Notes: generated by a model from the sequence alone, not told the origin. Positions 1-50,563 are shown, counted from the stretch's first letter. The stretch is DNA of 64,000 bases from Alphaproteobacteria bacterium (GCA_050175015.1 JBFXJJ010000010.1:9987-73986), one strand, 5' to 3'. Numbers and translations are program-made.

Positions 1-497
1 GCGTTATTGGCTGAGTAAATTCCGTTGTTATTGCCAAGTTTGGTATGAAGTTTTTCAATATCATTTTTTGTTATTGAGGTTATTTTTTTATAATCCCAAT
101 TTTTAAAATATCGATTGTAAATATCTATATTTTCTTGCCAAGTTCTTTGTTTGGTATGCTTTTTAGAATATTTTTCAATATATTCATCAAAAAGCTCTTG
201 TAATATAAGCTCTTCCTTAAGTCTGTTCTTTTCAATATTAGGATTTTTACCTTCACTAAGCTGAGAAATAATTTCTAAAGCTTTAGCTCGAGCTTTGATT
301 AAAGTTATTTCCGTATTTTTGCCAATAGTGATTTTTAAAGGTCTGCCATTATGCTTTTTATAAATGACATAGGTTTTAACCCCTTTATCGGTAACTCGGC
401 ATATTAAACAGCTAACTTTATCATCTTTAACTGAATATCTTTTGCCCTCTTTAGCTGGCTTTAGTCTTTCAATATAACTTTCTGTAAAATTTGGCAT
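1..497 (-). CDS. Tyrosine recombinase / phage (P4-type) integrase, N-terminal part; the gene runs off the left edge
   Basis: ATG at 497 on the minus strand, preceded by GAGGA. The translation MPNFTESYIERLKPAKEGKRYSVKDDKVSCLICRVTDKGVKTYVIYKKHNGRPLKITIGKNTEITLIKARAKALEIISQLSEGKNPNIEK matches the integrase arm-type DNA-binding N-domain (pattern LTDxxIxxLKP...Y.v.D..v.GL.lrV...G.KtW...Y). It is not in the ORF track because it is open at the window edge. Confidence 0.7.
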   Translation of the reverse strand, partial: MPNFTESYIERLKPAKEGKRYSVKDDKVSCLICRVTDKGVKTYVIYKKHNGRPLKITIGKNTEITLIKARAKALEIISQLSEGKNPNIEKNRLKEELILQELFDEYIEKYSKKHTKQRTWQENIDIYNRYFKNWDYKKITSITKNDIEKLHTKLGNNNGIYSANN

Positions 498-513
498 TTT
501 AAAAAATCCTCAA

Positions 514-600
514 ACTGGGGCTACTTTTTTAAATTTAATTTCAACAAAAGCGTTTTTTTAGAAGGGTTTTATAAAAATCTCGGGGCTACTCTGGGGCTAC
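514..600. repeat. Three copies of GGGGCTAC (517-524, 582-589, 593-600; the last two 11 bp apart) between the integrase start and the tRNA-like core; candidate integrase arm-type binding sites
   Basis: Exact octamer repeats read directly from the sequence (ACTGGGGCTAC, TCTCGGGGCTAC, TCTGGGGCTAC). They lie in the 240-bp int-att spacer. Confidence 0.45.
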
Positions 601-738
601 CTTTTTGATAAAAAACCATCAAAAACGACTTGTTGTTATAAAACCAAGAATCAGGCAAAAGTGTTGAATTGTCAAGGGTTATAATGGCATATAAAAAACC
701 GTCAAACCTAAAACCAGCAAATTTGTAATCAGAGGGTC

Positions 739-766
739 GGGAGTTCAAGTCTCTTAGCCGGCACCA
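739..766 (+). other. tRNA 3'-end-like fragment (T-arm GGGAG-TTCAAGT-CTCTT, acceptor 3' strand AGCCGGC, discriminator A, CCA); putative att core or direct repeat of an integrated element
   Basis: Canonical T-loop TTCAAGT and a ...GCCGGCACCA end are present. No matching 5' acceptor strand (GCCGGCT), D-arm or anticodon arm lies upstream, so this is not an intact tRNA gene. Confidence 0.5.
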
Positions 767-778
767 GAATTCTCAAGG

Positions 779-816
779 GTTTCAAAGTTTTTGCTTTGAA
801 ACTTTTTTGTTTTTTT
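779..816 (+). terminator. Rho-independent terminator immediately after the tRNA-like 3' end
   Basis: Hairpin GTTTCAAAG / loop TTTTTG / CTTTGAAAC, followed by TTTTTTGTTTTTTT. Confidence 0.6.
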
Positions 817-862
817 GATGTCATCTTAGGGATAATCTTTTAAATAAGAATGAAGTTATAAT

Positions 863-1909: not shown

Positions 1910-2527
1910 TTATTGAATGTTGTTTATTATAGCATCACATAGAGCACTATCTTTTCCCTTTTTTATTTTTTTATAGCAATTGTCGAAAATACATAAATTA
2001 TAGAGCCTGTTATAATTATCAATTAAATAAGTATACGAAACTTTTTGTTCGTTAATAATATAATTCTGGTTATTAAACTGAAAAAAATTAAATTCGGAAT
2101 TTAAAGGTAAAGACAATTCCTTCTTTTCAATAGAATATGATGGAAAATAGGCGTTCTTTATTTTTCTTCCGTTGAATTTACTGGCGATACCATTTAAATC
2201 TTTTTCGCTGTTTATAGTCAAACTTGATTGTTTTAGATAGTTTTTAACCTCGTCGATATTGTCAAAATAAACATACCCTAAACGTTCATTCTTGTTGTTT
2301 AACTTTATAATATGAAGCAGTTCTTCTTTGCCATCGTTATTAAAATCAATAAAAATAATTTTATCATCAGTATTAGCAATCTTTGCCATTTGAAACTGGG
2401 TAATTTCGTTGTCCCATTGATACGAATTAAAAGTAGAGGCATTTTGATTGTTATGTTTTGCTGTTGTGTAACCAATAAAACCACAAATTGCCACAAGTAA
2501 AAAAAGAAAAATTACTCTGCTGTTCAT
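1910..2527 (-). CDS. Secreted protein with one copy of the ~150-aa DxNxDG repeat unit (205 aa)
   Basis: N-terminal signal peptide MNSRVIFLFLLVAICGFIGYTTA. It contains WDNEITQFQMAKI...IDFNNDGKEELLHI...KNYLKQSSLTINSEKD...KFNGRKI, the same unit that is repeated in the upstream 919-aa protein. The ATGA start/stop overlap with that gene at 2524-2527 suggests translational coupling. Confidence 0.55.
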   Translation of the reverse strand: MNSRVIFLFLLVAICGFIGYTTAKHNNQNASTFNSYQWDNEITQFQMAKIANTDDKIIFIDFNNDGKEELLHIIKLNNKNERLGYVYFDNIDEVKNYLKQSSLTINSEKDLNGIASKFNGRKIKNAYFPSYSIEKKELSLPLNSEFNFFQFNNQNYIINEQKVSYTYLIDNYNRLYNLCIFDNCYKKIKKGKDSALCDAIINNIQ

Positions 2528-5283
2528 TTGTTATTTACTTTTGTTTGAGATTCTTCAGTTTTTTCCAACTTATCTAAATCTGTACCGCAGAGTTCCTTTA
2601 CTTTTTGTTTGAGGTAAGTTTCAAGCTGTTTTTTAGTATTTTCTGATAAATTAGAATTTTTTACTCTAGCTTTTATTTCATCAGCAAAGCTTTCGTCATA
2701 TAAATAACTATCTTCATGAACGTGGTTTTTAGATATAATCTTAGCCGTGTATAACCTTATGATATTAAGCGGTAAATTTTCATTTTTATATAAGTAAGGA
2801 TAAAACGAGCAAATTTCATGGGATTTATCATCTTTTATTAAATATATATCATCGTAATAAGTATCAAAAAAATAGTTGGTTTTATTATATTTAAAGAATG
2901 AAAAATCATTCCAGTTAAATGGTTGTTTGTTATTCAAGAACTGTTCTGAGATACTGTTTTTTAAATTAGATTTTTTAACGAATCTAATAAAATTATCTTT
3001 ATTTTTTACAATACTGTTTGGTTCCTTTAGAAAAGCATTACTTAGACTTATATCATCTAAATAGATGTCATAACCAATGTTTCCATAAGGTTCATCAATG
3101 GCATCATAAACCCAAGCAATTTCTTGTTCTAGTTCTTCGTGCCTGTTTTTATTTTTTATTGGAAACCTTTCATGGATAAAGATATCACTATTAAATTTCT
3201 GGGCTATTTTCACAAAATCATCTTTGTTTTTAAGAACTAAGTTTGGTTGTTTTAAATATTTTTTAACTTCAGAAATGTTTTTAGAAAAGATTGCAGTATC
3301 AATATTATTATTAATTCCATCTAGAGAATATATTCCTGTAGTATAGATTAACTCATTGTTGTTGTCGTTATTAAAATCAAGCTCAATAATTTTAGATAAA
3401 TTCGCAGCCTCAATTAACATTTGGGCAATGTTATTGTCCCATTCATACGGTTCAATTTTGAAGTTTTGAGAGATATAATTATCAAAATCATTAATAATAT
3501 TTGTTTCGACTGAAAAACCATAATAACTTGCTACATTTTTACAGAAAATATTGTCTTCTCCTTGTTGGGGAATATTGGTTGACCCAACAAAACTGCAAAT
3601 TTCTTTGGCTGAGTTTTTTTCGATTAGAAATACCTGTGTTTGCCAACGATTTTTATTAAGAAAATAAATTTTGCTATCAGAATAAAAAAAGTTAGGTTCA
3701 TCTATTGGCAAAAACCAACGTTCTTTCTTTTCATCAAAATAGGGGGTTCCTGAGGGAGTTATTTCTTTGCCGTTAAATTTTTCTGCAATGTTAAAAAAAT
3801 CATTTTGATTATTTATAACAAAGCTTTTTTGTTTTAATTGTTTGATGATATCGTCAATATTACTGTAATAAATTACAGCTTTTCTCGTTGATATAGAATT
3901 TTCTTTGGCATCTAGGTTATAATTTTTAGAAATATGTATTAACTCTTTTTGCCCATCATTGTTGAAATCAATTAAAATAACCCCATCTAAAGAATCATCG
4001 ATAGGAGGTGTTTGCATTTGAGTTATTTTATGATCCCAATTATATTTCTTTATTCTATGATATTGACCAACATCATTTAAATCAAAATCGCTTGGTATTT
4101 TATTTACGATTTTTTTGGCTTTGACAAGACCATTGTTTTTATTTTTAGCATTCCAGTTGTAGTTTGGGTAAGTTTTAACATTGCTTGGATAGTTTTTTAT
4201 CTTTTCGTTTTTTACCAACAATCCATATGAATTAGCTGCAACATGGCAAACAAGGTTTTCATATCCTGACGTTAGTTCAAAATCAGGCAAAGAAAAACGG
4301 CACAACCTTTTTGCTTGGTTGTTTTCAATTAAGAAAACATTTGTTTTTTCGCTCAATATGTAAGTTTTATTATGGAACTCAAAAAATACAAGATCAATTA
4401 ACGGTAAGGCCCAATCTTGATTTTTCTCTGAGAAAAAAGGAGCATAAGCAAAGTTTATTTCTTTGCCATTAAATTTTTTAACAATAGCATCAAAGTTAGA
4501 TTTATTTTTTAAGGTTAGATTTGGTTGTTTTAAGTATGCTTTGATTGCGCTAATATTTTGAGTGAAAAAGGCGGTATAACCTTTGTAAGTATCATATACT
4601 TCCTGTCCATAATCTTTTAAGTAATAAAATCCTGTAGTATAAATTAGTTCTTTTTTGCCATCATTATTAAAGTCAACTTCAATTATTTTAGATGGTTCTA
4701 GTTTAGCCAGTTGTATTTGCGCAATGTTATTGTCCCAAGACATTTCTTCTATTAGTTTTGGTTTTATGAAATTTTCTTTGTCAGTAAGAAAGCTGTGTTT
4801 CTCGGCAAATGCATAACAAACAGGTTCATTAAAGCCATAGTTAAGAAATAAAGGAGAGTTTGAATTATAATACCATTCATCATAAGTTTTTTTAGGATAA
4901 TTTTTTGCTAGTAACCAAGATGAACCATCTACAATTATTGATTTTGCAAAATCGCCTCTATTACAACTCATAGGAGTGCCATAGTTTTGGTAAAAAGCAT
5001 TTTTATGTAGTTTAGCGCACATAATTCTACATTGTTCTTCCTCTTTTGACTTTGGAGAAAACCCTAAGTAACAATTATGGTTGCATCTAACTTCGCCTTC
5101 TTTGTAACTGAAACCTGTTTCTAATGTAAAATCATTTTTTATTTTATTCAGGCTAGGAATCTTGCTCCAATCTGGATGATACTTCAATTTAGAGAAAACA
5201 GAGTTGCCTTCATCTGCTATGCTAATCGAAGCTGCCAGGGTTAAAAATGTTATGATAAATGCAATAAATTTAAGTGATTTCAT
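2524..5283 (-). CDS. Large secreted protein (919 aa): signal peptide, Cys-rich N-domain, then four tandem ~150-aa repeat units each carrying a DFNNDGKKELI (DxNxDG, Ca-binding-loop-like) motif
   Basis: Signal peptide MKSLKFIAFIITFLTLAASISIA. The repeat units begin WDNNIAQIQLAKLEPSKIIEVDFNNDGKKELIYTTG; WDHKITQMQTPPIDDSLDGVILIDFNNDGQKELIHIS; WDNNIAQMLIEAANLSKIIELDFNNDNNNELIYTTG; a fourth is degenerate. Each unit is followed by KxYLKQPNLxLKNK...KFNGKEI. Confidence 0.6.
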   Translation of the reverse strand: MKSLKFIAFIITFLTLAASISIADEGNSVFSKLKYHPDWSKIPSLNKIKNDFTLETGFSYKEGEVRCNHNCYLGFSPKSKEEEQCRIMCAKLHKNAFYQNYGTPMSCNRGDFAKSIIVDGSSWLLAKNYPKKTYDEWYYNSNSPLFLNYGFNEPVCYAFAEKHSFLTDKENFIKPKLIEEMSWDNNIAQIQLAKLEPSKIIEVDFNNDGKKELIYTTGFYYLKDYGQEVYDTYKGYTAFFTQNISAIKAYLKQPNLTLKNKSNFDAIVKKFNGKEINFAYAPFFSEKNQDWALPLIDLVFFEFHNKTYILSEKTNVFLIENNQAKRLCRFSLPDFELTSGYENLVCHVAANSYGLLVKNEKIKNYPSNVKTYPNYNWNAKNKNNGLVKAKKIVNKIPSDFDLNDVGQYHRIKKYNWDHKITQMQTPPIDDSLDGVILIDFNNDGQKELIHISKNYNLDAKENSISTRKAVIYYSNIDDIIKQLKQKSFVINNQNDFFNIAEKFNGKEITPSGTPYFDEKKERWFLPIDEPNFFYSDSKIYFLNKNRWQTQVFLIEKNSAKEICSFVGSTNIPQQGEDNIFCKNVASYYGFSVETNIINDFDNYISQNFKIEPYEWDNNIAQMLIEAANLSKIIELDFNNDNNNELIYTTGIYSLDGINNNIDTAIFSKNISEVKKYLKQPNLVLKNKDDFVKIAQKFNSDIFIHERFPIKNKNRHEELEQEIAWVYDAIDEPYGNIGYDIYLDDISLSNAFLKEPNSIVKNKDNFIRFVKKSNLKNSISEQFLNNKQPFNWNDFSFFKYNKTNYFFDTYYDDIYLIKDDKSHEICSFYPYLYKNENLPLNIIRLYTAKIISKNHVHEDSYLYDESFADEIKARVKNSNLSENTKKQLETYLKQKVKELCGTDLDKLEKTEESQTKVNNK

Positions 5284-5286
5284 GTT

Positions 5287-6399
5287 TTATCTTGATCTAA
5301 GTTTTTTTATATCAAAAAAGTTTTTTTTGGGTGCTATTTCTAAAATTCTATCATATCCGTTTTCCCTTTCTGGTATATGTTTAGGATTCTCTTTATCAAA
5401 ATCATTAAATGTCTTAGGAAAGTTATTTGAAATATAATTAATAGTTGATTTTCTTAAGCCTACATTTTTGTCGGTTTGTATAAATGTTGATAGATCTTCT
5501 ATGTATATACAGTCTTCAATTAAAAAATTTTTTAAAAAAACTGAGACATCTACATCTTTTGAAAAATTAAATTTATCTTTTTGGGGCTGATTTTGTTTAA
5601 GAAACTTAACCATATTTTCTTCGTAGTAATCTTTTCTTAAGTCACTTAACCATATATTTTTTTTATTAACTTCTTTTTTTCCCTCATTATTTAGATTTGC
5701 TTTATCGGCACCACTATATTCATACCATTCCTTGAAAGCACTTTTTGTTGCTTGCATTGTTCCGTTGCTAATTTCTCTTTCAAAAGCCTTGAAAATATCA
5801 CTTGATGAACTTTCTTTGCGAGCATCAAAATAGACACTAAGATTACTTTCTTTTTTTAGTTCCCAAGTGGCAAGAGCAGAAAATGCTGTAGCATCAGCTT
5901 CCATTACTCGGTCTTTTATAATCCAAGCTCTTATACTGTCTTTTGTTAATTCAATTTCTATTCCTTTTCTATTTTGCCAAAAATGGCGTATTTCATGTGC
6001 AAAAGTTGCAGGCATATTGACCCCATAACTATCTATGTCACTTTTGAATTTGCTATAAGCATCTCCGTATCTTTGTCCGTAAGTTTCTGGGGTGTCGTCT
6101 TTTCCATATTTTTCAATAATGCGAGGAATTATAATTTTTTTATTTACTGAATCAAAAACTCCAAAATTTTTTGTTTCTTTTTTATTGCTATCAGGATTGT
6201 TTTTGTAAACCTCATCACTGAAAACAACCTTTATTTTATCTACCCCTATTTCTTTGATTAGACGTCGGATAGATTTACTTAAGAGAGTATTATAAAACTG
6301 AGAGTGATAAATAATCGCATATTGATCTAGTTTTTGGCACCAAAGATCATTATACACTTCAGGAGAATCGGTCTCTATATCAGGTGTTCTGATATACAT
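5287..6399 (-). CDS. Zincin-like protein with HExxH (AHEIRHF) and a downstream Glu (MEADATAF); putative metallopeptidase-fold protein with no signal peptide (370 aa)
   Basis: The HEIRH motif and a Glu about 30 residues downstream resemble the gluzincin arrangement. The stop lies 3 nt before the start of the 919-aa gene, which indicates an operon. The family could not be assigned from sequence alone. Confidence 0.45.
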   Translation of the reverse strand: MYIRTPDIETDSPEVYNDLWCQKLDQYAIIYHSQFYNTLLSKSIRRLIKEIGVDKIKVVFSDEVYKNNPDSNKKETKNFGVFDSVNKKIIIPRIIEKYGKDDTPETYGQRYGDAYSKFKSDIDSYGVNMPATFAHEIRHFWQNRKGIEIELTKDSIRAWIIKDRVMEADATAFSALATWELKKESNLSVYFDARKESSSSDIFKAFEREISNGTMQATKSAFKEWYEYSGADKANLNNEGKKEVNKKNIWLSDLRKDYYEENMVKFLKQNQPQKDKFNFSKDVDVSVFLKNFLIEDCIYIEDLSTFIQTDKNVGLRKSTINYISNNFPKTFNDFDKENPKHIPERENGYDRILEIAPKKNFFDIKKLRSR

Positions 6400-6770: not shown

Positions 6771-6944
6771 TCATTGGCCGTTTCTGCTTGCTTGAGGTTT
6801 TTTCATTCTTTCTAACTTATCCCAATCTGTGCCGCAGAGTTTCTTGACTTTTTGTTTGAGATAGGTTTCAAGCTGTTTTTTAGTATTTTCTAATAAATTA
6901 GAATTTTTTACTCTAGCTTTTATTTCATATACAAAGCATATCAT
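6771..6944 (-). pseudogene. Truncated duplicate of the 3' end of the 919-aa repeat-protein gene (58-aa remnant ORF)
   Basis: 6814-6940 is about 92% identical to 2566-2690, the C-terminal coding end of 2524..5283. The remnant translates as ...IKARVKNSNLLENTKKQLETYLKQKVKKLCGTDWDKLE, against the full gene's ...IKARVKNSNLSENTKKQLETYLKQKVKELCGTDLDKLE. Confidence 0.6.
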
Positions 6945-7260: not shown

Positions 7261-10200
7261 ATGTCCAATGATTATGTTGAAGAGTTATTGTTTAAGCAAT
7301 TAAATAATAAGGAGTTACTCTCGAAGTATGGCTTGTATAATCAAAAAGATGAACACTCTTCCTGCGGTGTTGGGTTTATCTCATCGATTGATGGCAAAGC
7401 CAGCCGAAAAGTTGTAAAAGTTGGCATAGAATCCTTAAAAGCGCTTTTTTATAGAGGCGCCGTTGATGCTGATGGCAAAACGGGAGATGGGGCTGGTATT
7501 CATATTGAGCTGCCACAAGAATTTTTTAAAGAGCATATCAGAAACACGGGGCATGCGGCTAAAAAAGATTTAGTTGCGGTTGGTATGATTTTTCTTCCAA
7601 GAAAAGATTTGCACGCTAGAGAGCGCTGCCGTGCGATTGTCGAAAGCGAGATTATTGATTTTGGCTATGAGGTTTATGGCTGGAGGCAGGTTCCCGTTGA
7701 TACTTCTGTGATTGGCGAAAAGGCCAATGCCACAAGACCAGAAATCGAGCAAATTATGATTGCTAACTCCAAAAATAAAACAGCAGAAGATTTTGATCTT
7801 GATTTATACATAATAAGAAGAAAAATAGAAAATGCGGTGATTGCCGAGCATATAAAAGATTTTTATATATGCTCTTTTTCCTGCCGTACAATTATCTATA
7901 AGGGGCTGTTTTTAGCTGGGCAGTTAGCGCAGTTTTTTCCTGATTTGCAGGACGAAAGATTTATATCAAGATACGCTCTTTATCACCAGCGTTATTCCAC
8001 TAATACTTTTCCAACTTGGTCATTAGCGCAGCCTTTTAGAATGATTGCTCATAATGGCGAGATAAACACGTTGTCGGGCAATCTTAACTGGTTAAAAGCG
8101 CTTGAGCCTCGGTTAGAAAGCAAAAGAATAGGGGAATATATTAAAGACGTAAAACCGATTGTCTTGCCTGATAGTTCTGATTCTGCGGCACTTGACAGCG
8201 TGTTTGAGCTAATGTGTTATTCGGGCAGGGACATACCTCTTGTAAAGTCCATTCTGATTCCAGAAGCAATCGAAAATAAGAAAGATGCCAAAGAGGAATT
8301 GAAGGCTTTTGTTTCTTACTGCAACAGCATAATAACCCCTTGGGACGGTCCTGCGGCTTTAGTTGCGACCGATGGCAAATGGATTTTAGCTGGTATGGAT
8401 AGAAATGGTTTGCGCCCGCTTCGTTATACGGTAATGGAAGACGGTTTGCTAATTGTTGGTTCCGAAAGCGGTATGATACGAGTTAAAGAAACGGACATAA
8501 TAGAAAAGGGCAAAATTCTTCCAGGGGAAATGCTGGCTCTGAATCTTGATGAAGGAAAATTATATAAAGATGCCGAAATAAAAGCAAAGCTTGCTGCTAA
8601 GCACCCTTACTCTGACTGGGTTAAACGGATAACAAAGTTAGAAGATATTATAAGAGAAAAAACATTAGATAAGCCTTCGGTTAAAGAAGAAAGCTTAACT
8701 AAACTGCAAAACTGTTTTGGTATAACGAAAGAAGATATAAAAACGGTTTTAACTCCTATGATTTGTGATGGCAAAGAAGCTGTTGGTTCTATGGGAGATG
8801 ATGTTCCTTTGGCCGTTCTAGCCGAAGGTTACCGTAGTTTACACCATTATTTTAGGCAGATTTTTAGTCAGGTTACTAATCCTCCTATAGATAGTTTGAG
8901 AGAAGTATCCGTTATGTCGCTGGCGACAAGAATTGGCAATATGGGTAATATCTTAGATGAAACGGAAAGGCAGTGTGATATTTTAGAAATGGCTTCGCCT
9001 GTTTTGCTTAACCGTGAATTCGATACAATGGTAGACTTTCTAAAGGATAAAATTTATCAAATCGATTGTACTTTTGATGTTGAGGGTGGAAAAGATTCTT
9101 TGTTTCATCGAGTTGAGGAGATAAAAAAAGAAGCGGTTTCTGCGGTTTTATCTGGTAAATCTAATATCGTTTTATCTGACAGAAACATTTCTGAAAAAAG
9201 AGCTCCAATGCCTATGATATTGGCTACAGGGGCAGTCCATACTGAGTTAATAAAACAAAAATTGAGAGCCGAAAGCACAATTCACGTTGCCTCAGGAGAA
9301 TGTATCGATACGCATTATTTTGCCGTCTTAATCGGAGTTGGGGCAACAACGGTAAATCCTTATTTAACTCAAGATGCCATTGTTATAAGTCATAAAAAAG
9401 ATAATCTTTACGGTGAGTTATCATTAGAGGAATGTCTGCAAAATTATAAAAAAGCTATAAATGCAGGGCTGTTAAAAATAATGTCAAAAGTAGGCATTTG
9501 CATAATAAGCTCTTACCGAGGTGGTGGCTACTTCGAGGCCTTAGGATTATCAAGAACAATGGTTGCCAGATGCTTTTTAGGTATGTCATCAAGAATATCT
9601 GGCATCGGAACGGAAGGTCTCCGTCAAATGATTGTAAAACAGCATAAGAAAGCCTTCGTAGAAGGGGCAGATCTTGATGCTGGCGGTTTTTATTTTGATA
9701 GAAAAAATTCCAAAACACCGCACGGCTTTAGTATGCTTATTGCTAAAAAGCTCCAAGAAGCAGTTCGGACAGATTCTTATACGGCATATAAGGATTATGT
9801 AGAAGAAATAGAAAAGCTTCCTCCGATTGATTTGCGTAATTTATTAGGATTTAAGTATGCGAAAGAGCCTATGCCAAGAGATGAAGTTCAGTCTATAACC
9901 GAGATTAGAAAAAGCTTCTTAACTCCAGGAATGTCTTATGGTGCGCTAAGCCCCGAAGCTCACGAAACACTTAATATTGCAATGAATAGAATTGGGGCTA
10001 AATCTGTTTCAGGGGAAGGCGGAGAAGATTCTAATCGTTATAAGCCTTATTCAAATGGAGACAACGCTAATTCCGCAGTAAAACAGGTCGCATCTGGTCG
10101 TTTTGGCGTAACAGCGGAGTATCTTAATAACTGCGTTGAAATCGAAATAAAAATGGCACAAGGAGCAAAACCAGGTGAAGGCGGACAGTTGTTGGGCATT

Positions 10201-11733
10201 AAAGTTACAGAAGAAATAGCCAAGCTTCGTAACGCCGTAAAAGGAACAACTCTTATCAGTCCGCCGCCGCATCACGATATTTATTCCATCGAGGATTTAG
10301 CGCAGCTTATTTATGACTTAAAGCAGATAAATCCGAAAGCTAAAGTCGGCGTTAAGCTTGTTTCTAAAAGCGGCGTTGGAACTATAGCCGCAGGCGTTGC
10401 TAAAGCCAAAGCAGATATAATTACAATATCAGGCAATAATGGCGGAACAGGTGCCACGCCTTTAACTTCAATGAAGTTTGCAGGCGCTCCTTGGGAGCTG
10501 GGGTTAGCAGAGACCAATCAGATTTTAGTGCTTAATAATCTAAGGCATAACGTTAAACTTAGGGTTGATGGCGGTATAAAAACAGGAAAAGACATTGTCA
10601 TAGCAGCCATATTAGGGGCAGAAGAATTTGGGATAGGCACAGCGTCTCTTATCTCTTTGGGCTGTGTGGCAGACAGAATGTGTCATAAGAACACGTGTCC
10701 TGTTGGAATATGTACCCAAAATCCTGACTTAAGAAAGAGATATAAAGGAACCCCTGATAATGTTGTAAATTTGTTTTCGTTCATTGCGGAAGACGTGAGA
10801 ACAATATTAGCGCAACTGGGAGTAAGAAGTCTTAAGGAGCTTATCGGAAGAACTGACTTATTATATCAAATAAACCGTGGGGCAGAAAATCTAGACGATT
10901 TAGACTTAAACCCGATTTTGGTAAAACCCGATATTGGCGATGCTAAAATGTACTGCACCGTTGAAGGAAGAAATGAAGTTCCTGAGACTTTAGATGAATT
11001 AATAATTAAAGATGCCGAGCCTGTTTTAGAAAATAAAGCCAAAATGCAGCTCACGTATAACGTTAGAAATACGCATCGCTCTGTGGGAGCAAAAATTTCT
11101 CATATGATTTATAAAAAATATGGAAACAGTTTATCTAACGACCTCTTAACTATAAGATTAAGAGGCAGTGCAGGGCAGTCGCTGGGAGCGTTTGCTGTAA
11201 ATGGCTTAAAATTAGAAGTTTTCGGCGATGCTAACGATTATGTCGGCAAAGGCTTATCGGGAGGAATAATCGTTGTCCGTCCTTCGGCTTCAAGCAAGTT
11301 AAAAACCAATGAAAATATTATCATCGGGAATACGGTTTTATACGGTGCAACATCAGGAAAACTCTTTGCCGCTGGCAAAGCTGGTGAACGTTTTGCGGTT
11401 AGAAACTCTGGAGCTGCTGCGGTGGTTGAAGGCTGTGGCTATAACGGCTGTGAATATATGACGGGAGGCGTTGTTGTTATATTAGGCGATGTTGGATATA
11501 ACTTTGGAGCGGGAATGACAGGAGGCTTGGCTTTTATATACAGTCCTTATGACATTTCCGATAAAATTAATAAGGACAGCATTACGTTAGAGAAAATAAG
11601 AGATCCTAAACACGAAATGATACTAAAAGATTTAATAAAAGAGCATATCAAGGAAACAAAATCATCTTTTGCTAGTTCGTTATTAGATAACTGGGAAAAA
11701 GAGAAAGATAATTTTAAAATAGCTGTTCATTAA
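7261..11733 (+). CDS. gltB: Glutamate synthase large subunit
   Basis: 1490 aa. N-terminal Ntn amidotransferase with a Cys after the initiator region (SSCGVGFI), then the central and FMN/Fe-S domains (GMSYGALS, PPPHHDIYSIEDL) and a C-terminal GXGXG beta-helix domain. Confidence 0.95.
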   Translation: MSNDYVEELLFKQLNNKELLSKYGLYNQKDEHSSCGVGFISSIDGKASRKVVKVGIESLKALFYRGAVDADGKTGDGAGIHIELPQEFFKEHIRNTGHAAKKDLVAVGMIFLPRKDLHARERCRAIVESEIIDFGYEVYGWRQVPVDTSVIGEKANATRPEIEQIMIANSKNKTAEDFDLDLYIIRRKIENAVIAEHIKDFYICSFSCRTIIYKGLFLAGQLAQFFPDLQDERFISRYALYHQRYSTNTFPTWSLAQPFRMIAHNGEINTLSGNLNWLKALEPRLESKRIGEYIKDVKPIVLPDSSDSAALDSVFELMCYSGRDIPLVKSILIPEAIENKKDAKEELKAFVSYCNSIITPWDGPAALVATDGKWILAGMDRNGLRPLRYTVMEDGLLIVGSESGMIRVKETDIIEKGKILPGEMLALNLDEGKLYKDAEIKAKLAAKHPYSDWVKRITKLEDIIREKTLDKPSVKEESLTKLQNCFGITKEDIKTVLTPMICDGKEAVGSMGDDVPLAVLAEGYRSLHHYFRQIFSQVTNPPIDSLREVSVMSLATRIGNMGNILDETERQCDILEMASPVLLNREFDTMVDFLKDKIYQIDCTFDVEGGKDSLFHRVEEIKKEAVSAVLSGKSNIVLSDRNISEKRAPMPMILATGAVHTELIKQKLRAESTIHVASGECIDTHYFAVLIGVGATTVNPYLTQDAIVISHKKDNLYGELSLEECLQNYKKAINAGLLKIMSKVGICIISSYRGGGYFEALGLSRTMVARCFLGMSSRISGIGTEGLRQMIVKQHKKAFVEGADLDAGGFYFDRKNSKTPHGFSMLIAKKLQEAVRTDSYTAYKDYVEEIEKLPPIDLRNLLGFKYAKEPMPRDEVQSITEIRKSFLTPGMSYGALSPEAHETLNIAMNRIGAKSVSGEGGEDSNRYKPYSNGDNANSAVKQVASGRFGVTAEYLNNCVEIEIKMAQGAKPGEGGQLLGIKVTEEIAKLRNAVKGTTLISPPPHHDIYSIEDLAQLIYDLKQINPKAKVGVKLVSKSGVGTIAAGVAKAKADIITISGNNGGTGATPLTSMKFAGAPWELGLAETNQILVLNNLRHNVKLRVDGGIKTGKDIVIAAILGAEEFGIGTASLISLGCVADRMCHKNTCPVGICTQNPDLRKRYKGTPDNVVNLFSFIAEDVRTILAQLGVRSLKELIGRTDLLYQINRGAENLDDLDLNPILVKPDIGDAKMYCTVEGRNEVPETLDELIIKDAEPVLENKAKMQLTYNVRNTHRSVGAKISHMIYKKYGNSLSNDLLTIRLRGSAGQSLGAFAVNGLKLEVFGDANDYVGKGLSGGIIVVRPSASSKLKTNENIIIGNTVLYGATSGKLFAAGKAGERFAVRNSGAAAVVEGCGYNGCEYMTGGVVVILGDVGYNFGAGMTGGLAFIYSPYDISDKINKDSITLEKIRDPKHEMILKDLIKEHIKETKSSFASSLLDNWEKEKDNFKIAVH

Positions 11734-50487: not shown

Positions 50488-50563
50488 TGGCGACCCCAAG
50501 GGGATTTGAACCCCTGTTACCGCCGTGAAAGGGCGATGTCCTAGGCCTCTAGACGATGGGGTC
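50488..50563 (-). tRNA. tRNA-Glu (anticodon UUC)
   Basis: The reverse complement reads GACCCCATCGTCTAGAGGCCTAGGACATCGCCCTTTCACGGCGGTAACAGGGGTTCAAATCCCCTTGGGGTCGCCA. It has a cloverleaf, CUUUCAC anticodon loop and CCA end, and is close to the canonical bacterial tRNA-Glu. Confidence 0.95.

Follow-up and report, generated by a model that had tools for sequence, protein, structure and literature searches.

In the satellite phage P4, repeated Int-binding sequences are located on both sides of a core derived from a transfer RNA (tRNA), and a preference of integrase subfamilies for particular sublocations was reportedly described by Williams in 2002. Islands and prophages integrated into tRNA genes (tDNAs) are the subject of the Islander work of Hudson, Lau and Williams 2015 (PMC4383910), according to which the displaced 3′ fragment of the target lies downstream of the regenerated tDNA; furthermore, integration at an anticodon-loop sublocation has been described for some integrase subfamilies (summarized in bioRxiv 10.1101/2020.11.02.365908). 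In this study, the first 830 nucleotides of a DNA stretch from an Alphaproteobacteria bacterium (GCA_050175015.1, JBFXJJ010000010.1:9987-73986), which comprises 64,000 nucleotides and is referred to as the window in the following, were analyzed. Positions 1 to 830 represent, with high probability, the junction on the integrase side of an element that has inserted into a tRNA-Thr(UGU) gene, the element itself extending to the left, off the window. In the polarity of the tRNA, the junction is of the attR type and has the order P-O-B′, i.e., P arm, tRNA-derived core (O), and host DNA (B′), the latter comprising position 767 onward.

The core of the attachment site (att) was located at positions 722 to 766 on the plus strand and corresponds to the displaced 3′ half of tRNA-Thr(UGU), that is, to tRNA positions 32-76 including the encoded CCA. 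It starts with the anticodon loop TTTGTAA (anticodon UGU, Thr), followed by the stem TCAGA and the variable loop GGGTC, and continues with the T arm (GGGAG/TTCAAGT/CTCTT), the acceptor strand AGCCGGC, the discriminator base A, and CCA. Applying the tRNA model of Rfam in truncated mode from position 722 resulted in a 5′-cut alignment of positions 722-763 to model positions 31-71 (21.1 bits, E = 0.019). The five bases preceding the loop, GCAAA, are unable to pair as an anticodon stem, and neither a D arm nor a 5′ acceptor strand can be recognized further upstream. An intact tRNA overlapping positions 690-766, with which the original prediction for this locus had declared itself incompatible, was looked for by means of ARAGORN and of covariance models in Rfam searches of the whole region, and none was detected. 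The 28-nucleotide tRNA 3′ end lacking a 5′ half, from which that prediction had started, was recovered as a single occurrence in the window (739-766), but the tRNA-derived block is longer, comprising 45 nucleotides (722-766). Its T stem (GGGAG/CTCTT, within 739-763) contains two G-U pairs, and no exact match to the 25-nucleotide string composed of T arm and acceptor strand was obtained in 185,579 species genomes, IMG/VR, and the JGI metagenomes, the source genome not being included in these collections. The unmatched string and the G-U pairs may reflect either a very divergent lineage or a decaying displaced copy. A displaced tRNA 3′ fragment, as it characterizes Islander-type elements, is hence present at one endpoint, and the integrase gene (int) is located on its 5′ side at a distance of 225 nucleotides.

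The fragment is followed by an intrinsic-terminator-like hairpin and a T run at positions 775 to 816 on the plus strand, consisting of a stem (775-806) with 14 pairs, the loop TTTT, and then TTGTTTTTTT. For the hairpin (775-806), a folding energy of −14.9 kcal/mol (z = −2.7) was calculated, only three of its pairs being G-C. Hairpin and T run had been predicted at 779-816; both were found again, with the difference that the stem begins at 775. Most likely, the structure represents the original terminator of the host tRNA-Thr gene, the terminator function being predicted from base pairing and T run. It also faces the convergent open reading frame (ORF) at 863-1309.

On the other side of the fragment, the first 165 codons of int occupy positions 1 to 497 on the minus strand, with an open frame extending from an ATG at 497 past the left edge of the window. 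The product encoded by 497 to 1 consists of the arm-binding domain and the start of the SAM-like core-binding domain. This region had been predicted to encode the N-terminus of a P4-type integrase, and a comparison with tyrosine-recombinase profiles had been proposed as a check; when it was carried out, the Arm DNA-binding domain PF13356 was matched with E = 1.2e-10 (41.7 bits, cut-off 27). When 1.84 billion representative proteins were searched exhaustively with HMMER, 5225 homologues of the fragment were retrieved. The best of these showed 42-44% identity, were 385-436 amino acids long, and matched collinearly over their own first ~165 residues, while the top homologues bear PF13356 together with the catalytic domain PF00589. 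Identity to the N-termini of annotated phage integrases amounted to ~29%, and a word-indexed protein search with the fragment alone returned no match.

A subsequent profile search identified two proteins in the NCBI database that originate from a metagenome-assembled genome (MAG) and are titled ‘tyrosine-type recombinase/integrase [Alphaproteobacteria bacterium]’. The first, P0268 (MGD9638872.1, 388 amino acids), is encoded on a contig of 89,576 bp and is 100% identical to the window fragment over 165 amino acids; therefore, the window integrase is a full-length gene. Since PF00589 and the catalytic residues lie beyond the window, they were read from P0268 and not from the window DNA. P0268 contains PF13356 (E = 3.7e-10), the SAM-like domain PF13102, and PF00589 (E = 1.4e-28), and matches PHROG 1 ‘integrase’ with E = 7.7e-64. 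Residues R236, K261, H325, R328, H351, and Y360 are invariant in the alignment of the relatives (alignment A2) and were interpreted by us as the putative catalytic R-K-H-R-H-Y set. Judged by domains and residues, the protein is assigned to the P4-type tyrosine integrases. The second protein, P0151 (MGD9637757.1, 387 amino acids), is 96% identical over the fragment and 98% overall. It is encoded in the same MAG as P0268, on a different contig of 258 kb (257,994 bp), suggesting that two copies of related elements may reside in one genome.

The region that separates the start codon of int from the tRNA-derived core (498 to 721, plus strand) represents the P arm of the attachment site; it is element DNA, can be aligned with the corresponding regions of relatives, and probably also houses the promoter and the ribosome-binding site of int. 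Three exact copies of GGGGCTAC had been predicted here, two of them at a spacing of 11 bp, and all three are present on the plus strand. The first copy (517 to 524) is located, on the int strand, 20-27 nucleotides upstream of the ATG and just upstream of the ribosome-binding-like motif GAGGA, and it shares the extended match CTGGGGCTACyTTTTT with positions 591-606. The other two copies (582-589 and 593-600) form a tandem pair (582 to 600) with 11 nucleotides from start to start, corresponding to one helical turn. On both strands of the 64 kb, GGGGCTAC occurs only at 517, 582, and 593; 0.34 copies were expected, and none of 100 shuffled sequences reached three. Moreover, the pair at 582/593 is the sole tandem pair within the window, even with one mismatch allowed. 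Positions 575-612 align with the DNA upstream of int in two relatives, L019 and L023, with the common sequence CTGGkGCTACyCTGGkGCTACCTTTTTGrTAAAAA, the integrase of these relatives being 52% identical to that of the window. The repeats do not belong to the core and are over-represented in the arm, and relatives possess repeats of a similar kind and spacing, as is typical of arm-type sites; the copies of GGGGCTAC are accordingly predicted to be bound by Int. The expectation that arm sites flank the core could be followed on one side: the set of the P arm is present, but a P′ set is not found within the window, so that half of the arrangement is visible.

A further sequence of the P arm, GAATTGTCAAGGGTT (666 to 680, plus strand), might be a site for an accessory factor or for Int, although this is a weak call; its part TnTCAAGGGTT is kept in L019 and L023 at the same distance of ~41 nucleotides upstream of the core (alignment A3). 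A copy of 666-680 matching at 14 of 15 positions is found at 767-781 directly after CCA (GAATTsTCAAGGGTT), which is at chance level in the AT-rich window (E = 2). In the tRNA-fMet element L027, ATTCTTGCAAGGGTTT is located directly after CCA (~8670-8690) and resembles window positions 767-781. Both this 15-nucleotide repeat (666-680/767-781) and a 16-nucleotide match (718-733/1218-1233) were considered as additional att remnants and were rejected, being at chance level in the AT-rich window.

To place the junction into the context of its relatives, contigs encoding integrases with 50-54% identity to P0268 were collected, together with 80 further loci (39-53% identity) obtained by scanning metagenomes. 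The relatives were analyzed by means of tblastn, ARAGORN, and a detector for T arm and acceptor strand; the counts given here refer to 69 loci with at least 300 nucleotides upstream of int. In 54 out of these 69, a tRNA 3′ half not called by ARAGORN was detected on the strand opposite to int, its T stem being located 150-480 nucleotides (mostly 165-260) from the int start and the arms being 136-463 nucleotides long. The fragments are mostly derived from initiator-type CAT tRNAs, but also from tRNAs for Thr (UGU, GGU, CGU), Arg, Asn, Val, Lys, Ala, and Pro. Of the 54 distinct arms, that of the window among them, 53 contain an exact tandem repeat of 7-11 nucleotides, with a spacing of 11 nucleotides in 51 and of 10 nucleotides in two cases; at 10-12 nucleotides, 1.75 such repeats were expected from mononucleotide shuffles, as compared with the 53 observed. 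The usual motif is kGkGCTAC(C), seven relatives have an identical GGGGCTAC(C), and in most relatives the pair is located within ~40 nucleotides of the int start codon. The combination proposed for this element end, namely the 3′ part of a tRNA with int, arm repeats, a displaced 3′ end, and the host terminator, was thereby substantiated, the same module being found in 54 of the 69 relatives.

Both ends of the element are visible in nine relatives. There, an intact cognate tRNA gene is encoded on the strand of the fragment 7.75-11.2 kb beyond int, and exact direct repeats of 47-58 nucleotides (104 nucleotides in one case) extend from tRNA positions 27-33 through CCA. In each of the nine, a second tandem pair (P′) with the same motif, orientation, and 11-nucleotide spacing lies inside the element, 49-84 nucleotides after the intact tRNA and usually behind a hairpin, whereas the motif is otherwise almost absent from the respective locus. 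Beyond the fragment, host genes (yjdM, dnaX, and others) follow in the relatives; beyond int, genes for HTH_17 (AlpA-like), a DUF3987 or DUF3631 primase/helicase-like protein, and cargo, for example, a DNA methylase or a type I restriction-modification system, were found.

A few relatives deserve separate mention. L066 contains three copies of the tRNA-fMet core (2018, 9803, and 18583, minus strand) in a locus of 18.7 kb and is a tandem array of two elements of the integrase subfamily behind one intact tRNA. In L103, an intact tRNA-Met (9562-9638, plus strand) is located 384 nucleotides upstream of, and co-directional with, int (start at 9995), making it the sole one of the 69 relatives with the textbook layout of a tRNA followed by int. 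The Logan contigs of L021, L022, L024, and L029 have their position 1 ~30 nucleotides inside the tRNA fragment, as a k=31 assembly graph would at the edge of a repeat, which indirectly points to a duplication of the fragment in the respective samples.

The side on which the element resides had been regarded in the original prediction as not to be settled from the window. Our results indicate otherwise, the element being placed to the left by the polarity rule, the position of int in complete relatives, and the missing P′ pair on the right. Since the fragment is on the plus strand and the regenerated tRNA is to be expected upstream of a displaced 3′ fragment (PMC4383910), the element extends to the left. 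The same follows from the position of int, which adjoins the fragment inside the element in every relative with two visible ends. To the right of the fragment, no tandem pair of the P′ type was found in the window, mismatches being allowed, and no second copy of the core, even a degenerate one, was detected in these 63 kb; therefore, the DNA from position 767 onward was assigned to the host, with no second element. By analogy with the relatives, an intact tRNA-Thr(UGU) gene would be located left of the window. Regarding the class of islands that are bounded by an intact tRNA gene and its fragment, the fragment end is at hand, and int would be located between both ends according to the pattern of the family.

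Several points weigh against this interpretation. The far end is off the window, and neither the intact tRNA-Thr(UGU) nor the second core of the source genome was observed, so that truncation or decay of the element on that side is conceivable. The core is without an exact match in the genome, viral, and metagenome collections (source genome not included), and the two G-U pairs in the T stem may be a sign of decay, which, however, would not be surprising in a displaced copy. Furthermore, GCAAA to the left of the loop is unlike the anticodon stem of a tRNA, so that the crossover can be placed only approximately, and the binding of Int to GGGGCTAC is a prediction. The unobserved far end and the G-U pairs could describe a relic, in which deletion or rearrangement has affected the far end (the regenerated tRNA or the bulk of the cargo) and an immobile int remains beside an orphan att half-site. 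The absence of a tRNA match in 185,579 species genomes would fit a relic, as would the fact that AT-rich, host-associated-looking genomes accumulate relics, one of which is found in the window itself (6771-6944). This explanation is nevertheless improbable. The integrase is annotated as full length (388 amino acids) with all residues read as catalytic present, the arm repeats are exact, and the second integrase in the same MAG, being 98% identical, suggests recent activity; in addition, tRNA-Thr(UGU) is normally essential, which demands a regenerated copy at some place. With its intact integrase, exact repeats, and 98% paralogue, the element is more likely to be recent and probably functional.

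Considerably less probable still is a junction between tandem elements (P-O-P′) or an unrecombined attP, in which case the segment at 0.86-6.95 kb would also be element DNA. Tandem arrays do occur in the subfamily, as exemplified by L066 with its three core copies, and the right flank of the fragment features a low guanine-plus-cytosine (GC) content (27-30%) and encodes lineage-specific proteins. Moreover, GAATTCTCAAGGGTT directly after CCA repeats a motif of the P arm, L027 having a similar string after CCA. However, this 15-nucleotide repeat is at chance level (E = 2), and the P′ pair that all nine complete relatives possess 49-84 nucleotides after the tRNA end is missing from the window, as is any second core in the 63 kb to the right. 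Likewise, no gene for an integrase, HTH_17, or a primase-like protein was found in the right flank.

Permuted genes for transfer-messenger RNA (tmRNA) are known in Alphaproteobacteria. That the tRNA-like piece is unrelated to int, being a decayed pseudogene, a part of a two-piece (permuted) tmRNA, or a chance likeness, is nonetheless scarcely credible, because the alphaproteobacterial host and a superficial likeness of GGGGCTAC to the 5′ end of a tmRNA are outweighed by the match of anticodon loop, stem, and variable loop to tRNA-Thr(UGU) and by the recurrence of the int-repeat-fragment module in 54 relatives with many tRNA identities, the two-piece tmRNA being ruled out by the acceptor sequence (AGCCGGC needs the partner GCCGGCT, which gives C3-G70 in place of G3-U70, and GGGGCTA cannot serve as such a partner) and by ARAGORN and Rfam searches that found no tmRNA.

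For the junction of an element integrated into tRNA-Thr(UGU), the following course of events is proposed. The attP of the circular element would bear a copy of the tRNA 3′ half. Int would dock with its N-terminal arm-binding domain on the tandem GGGGCTAC sites, one helical turn apart, on both arms, and would thereby connect the arm-type sites (the kGkGCTAC pairs of P and P′) with the core-type sites that surround the crossover, while its catalytic domain would exchange strands in or beside the 7-nucleotide anticodon loop. We infer that the boundary between element-derived and host-derived DNA lies in or near this loop at ~721/722. Integration would remake the tRNA at the far end from the host 5′ half and an element-supplied 3′ half; with the replacement 3′ half and a terminator being provided by the element, the tRNA would stay functional, and the original host 3′ half (722-766) and terminator (775-816) would be stranded beside int. 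Bound to the repeat copy at 517-524, upstream of the ribosome-binding motif of int, Int would repress its own gene, and such repression is probable because this copy adjoins the GAGGA motif and because the pair of the relatives is located within ~40 nucleotides of the start. An AlpA-like excisionase would be expected in the off-window part by analogy with the relatives. Binding of Int to the repeats, crossover position, and autoregulation are suggested by the anatomy of the family together with established tyrosine-integrase biology, and site-specific attP × attB recombination is the activity predicted for this Int.

It is conceivable, albeit doubtful, that int belongs to a large and, as far as seen, unnamed family of ~8-11-kb P4-like elements in aquatic and host-associated Alphaproteobacteria. 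Such a family might be characterized by a stereotyped attP with one strict 11-nucleotide kGkGCTAC tandem pair per arm and int divergent from the core, as well as by an element-supplied terminator after the regenerated tRNA. On the same tentative view, its members may have moved between tRNA genes of no fewer than eight identities (fMet, Thr, Arg, Asn, Val, Lys, Ala, and Pro), the anticodon-loop sublocation being kept.

The host of the element is a divergent AT-rich alphaproteobacterium, since GltB encoded in the window (7261-11733) is ~60% identical to GltB of Rhodospirillales-like Alphaproteobacteria and the GC content of the window is about 27-41%. In these GltB relatives (~60% identical), a tRNA-Leu and not a tRNA-Thr is located upstream, making them uninformative with respect to the empty site. 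A neighboring ORF of 148 amino acids was found only on a 1.9-kb Logan contig, which is identical to the window and ends at 694. Further to the right, the ORF at 1910-2527 (205 amino acids, minus strand) represents one module of ~170 amino acids, at least three copies of which are present at 34-40% identity in the 919-amino-acid protein encoded at 2524-5283 (minus strand). The module features the motif DFNNDGK.EL and a weak FG-GAP-like Pfam match, and the proteins containing it are predicted to constitute a lineage-specific, secreted-looking repeat family adjoining the att junction. The ORF at 6771-6944 (57 amino acids, minus strand) shares 71% identity with the C-terminal 55 residues of the 919-amino-acid ORF and has the appearance of a relic left by another copy of this gene. 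Moreover, the ORF at 5287-6399 (370 amino acids, minus strand) encodes a putative metallopeptidase of DUF6782 (E = 6.9e-25) with the motif HEIRH. The segment at 0.86-6.95 kb had been described as accessory-like, for which the repeat proteins and the DUF6782 ORF indeed speak, but mobile-element genes were not found there. This segment was also considered as a second island bounded by a degenerate core and was discarded as such, no core of this kind being found in the window. The sole intact tRNA gene in the window is tRNA-Glu(UUC) (50488-50563, minus strand), in the vicinity of which no integrase or tRNA fragment was noticed.

For the annotation of the locus, these results imply that the boundary between mobile element and host DNA is placed between positions 721 and 722, that the element and, by analogy, the working tRNA-Thr(UGU) gene are to be sought left of the window, and that 722-766 is a tRNA fragment which should not be annotated as a gene. 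In fragmented metagenomes, the tandem 11-nucleotide kGkGCTAC pair in each arm, together with int beside the fragment, provides a signature for both ends of elements of this integrase subfamily. If the proposed family were real, it would offer a clean natural series for the study of integrase retargeting. Nothing in these results is contrary to the current understanding of site-specific integration.

Compared with the systems described previously, the junction and its relatives share several features with Islander islands: int is located inside the element in the relatives, as would be expected for the window from the pattern of the family, the target tRNA is split and, in the relatives, remade by element sequence, and the far endpoint bears a displaced 3′ tDNA fragment oriented in the same way. 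Also in common are the use of varied tRNA identities at the same sublocation (repeat from the anticodon stem/loop) by one integrase subfamily and the occurrence of tandem arrays (L066). In contrast to the textbook Islander layout, int is almost always located at the fragment end and is divergent from the fragment (54 of 69), and the window element is known from its fragment end alone, the regenerated tRNA end being off the window.

The domain architecture is that of the integrases of satellite phage P4 (Arm-DNA-bind_3 and Phage_integrase; PHROG 1). As in P4, attP is located immediately upstream of int, and repeats predicted to bind Int lie, in the relatives, on either side of the tRNA-derived core; moreover, the relatives resemble P4-like elements in that genes for an AlpA/Vis-like HTH_17 protein and for a primase/helicase-like protein (DUF3987 or DUF3631) are found near int. 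Differences from P4 concern the N-terminal identity to characterized phage integrases of only ~29% and the core, which begins at the anticodon loop and not at the extreme 3′ end and points away from int; capsid-hijacking or other satellite functions were not identified, the cargo of this element being off the window. As in phage lambda, the Int of which was matched weakly (PDB 1z1b, E = 8e-4), short direct repeats distinct from the core are present on both arms and would be bound by a separate N-terminal domain; one of the pairs extends into the control region of int, so that autoregulation would be possible. Unlike in lambda, the motif is kGkGCTAC, arranged in strict 11-nucleotide tandem pairs, one per arm and in the same orientation. 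Overall, the locus represents a standard tDNA-integrated element with a P4-type integrase, its mild peculiarity being confined to the subfamily level, namely the position of int at the fragment end and the paired att repeats.

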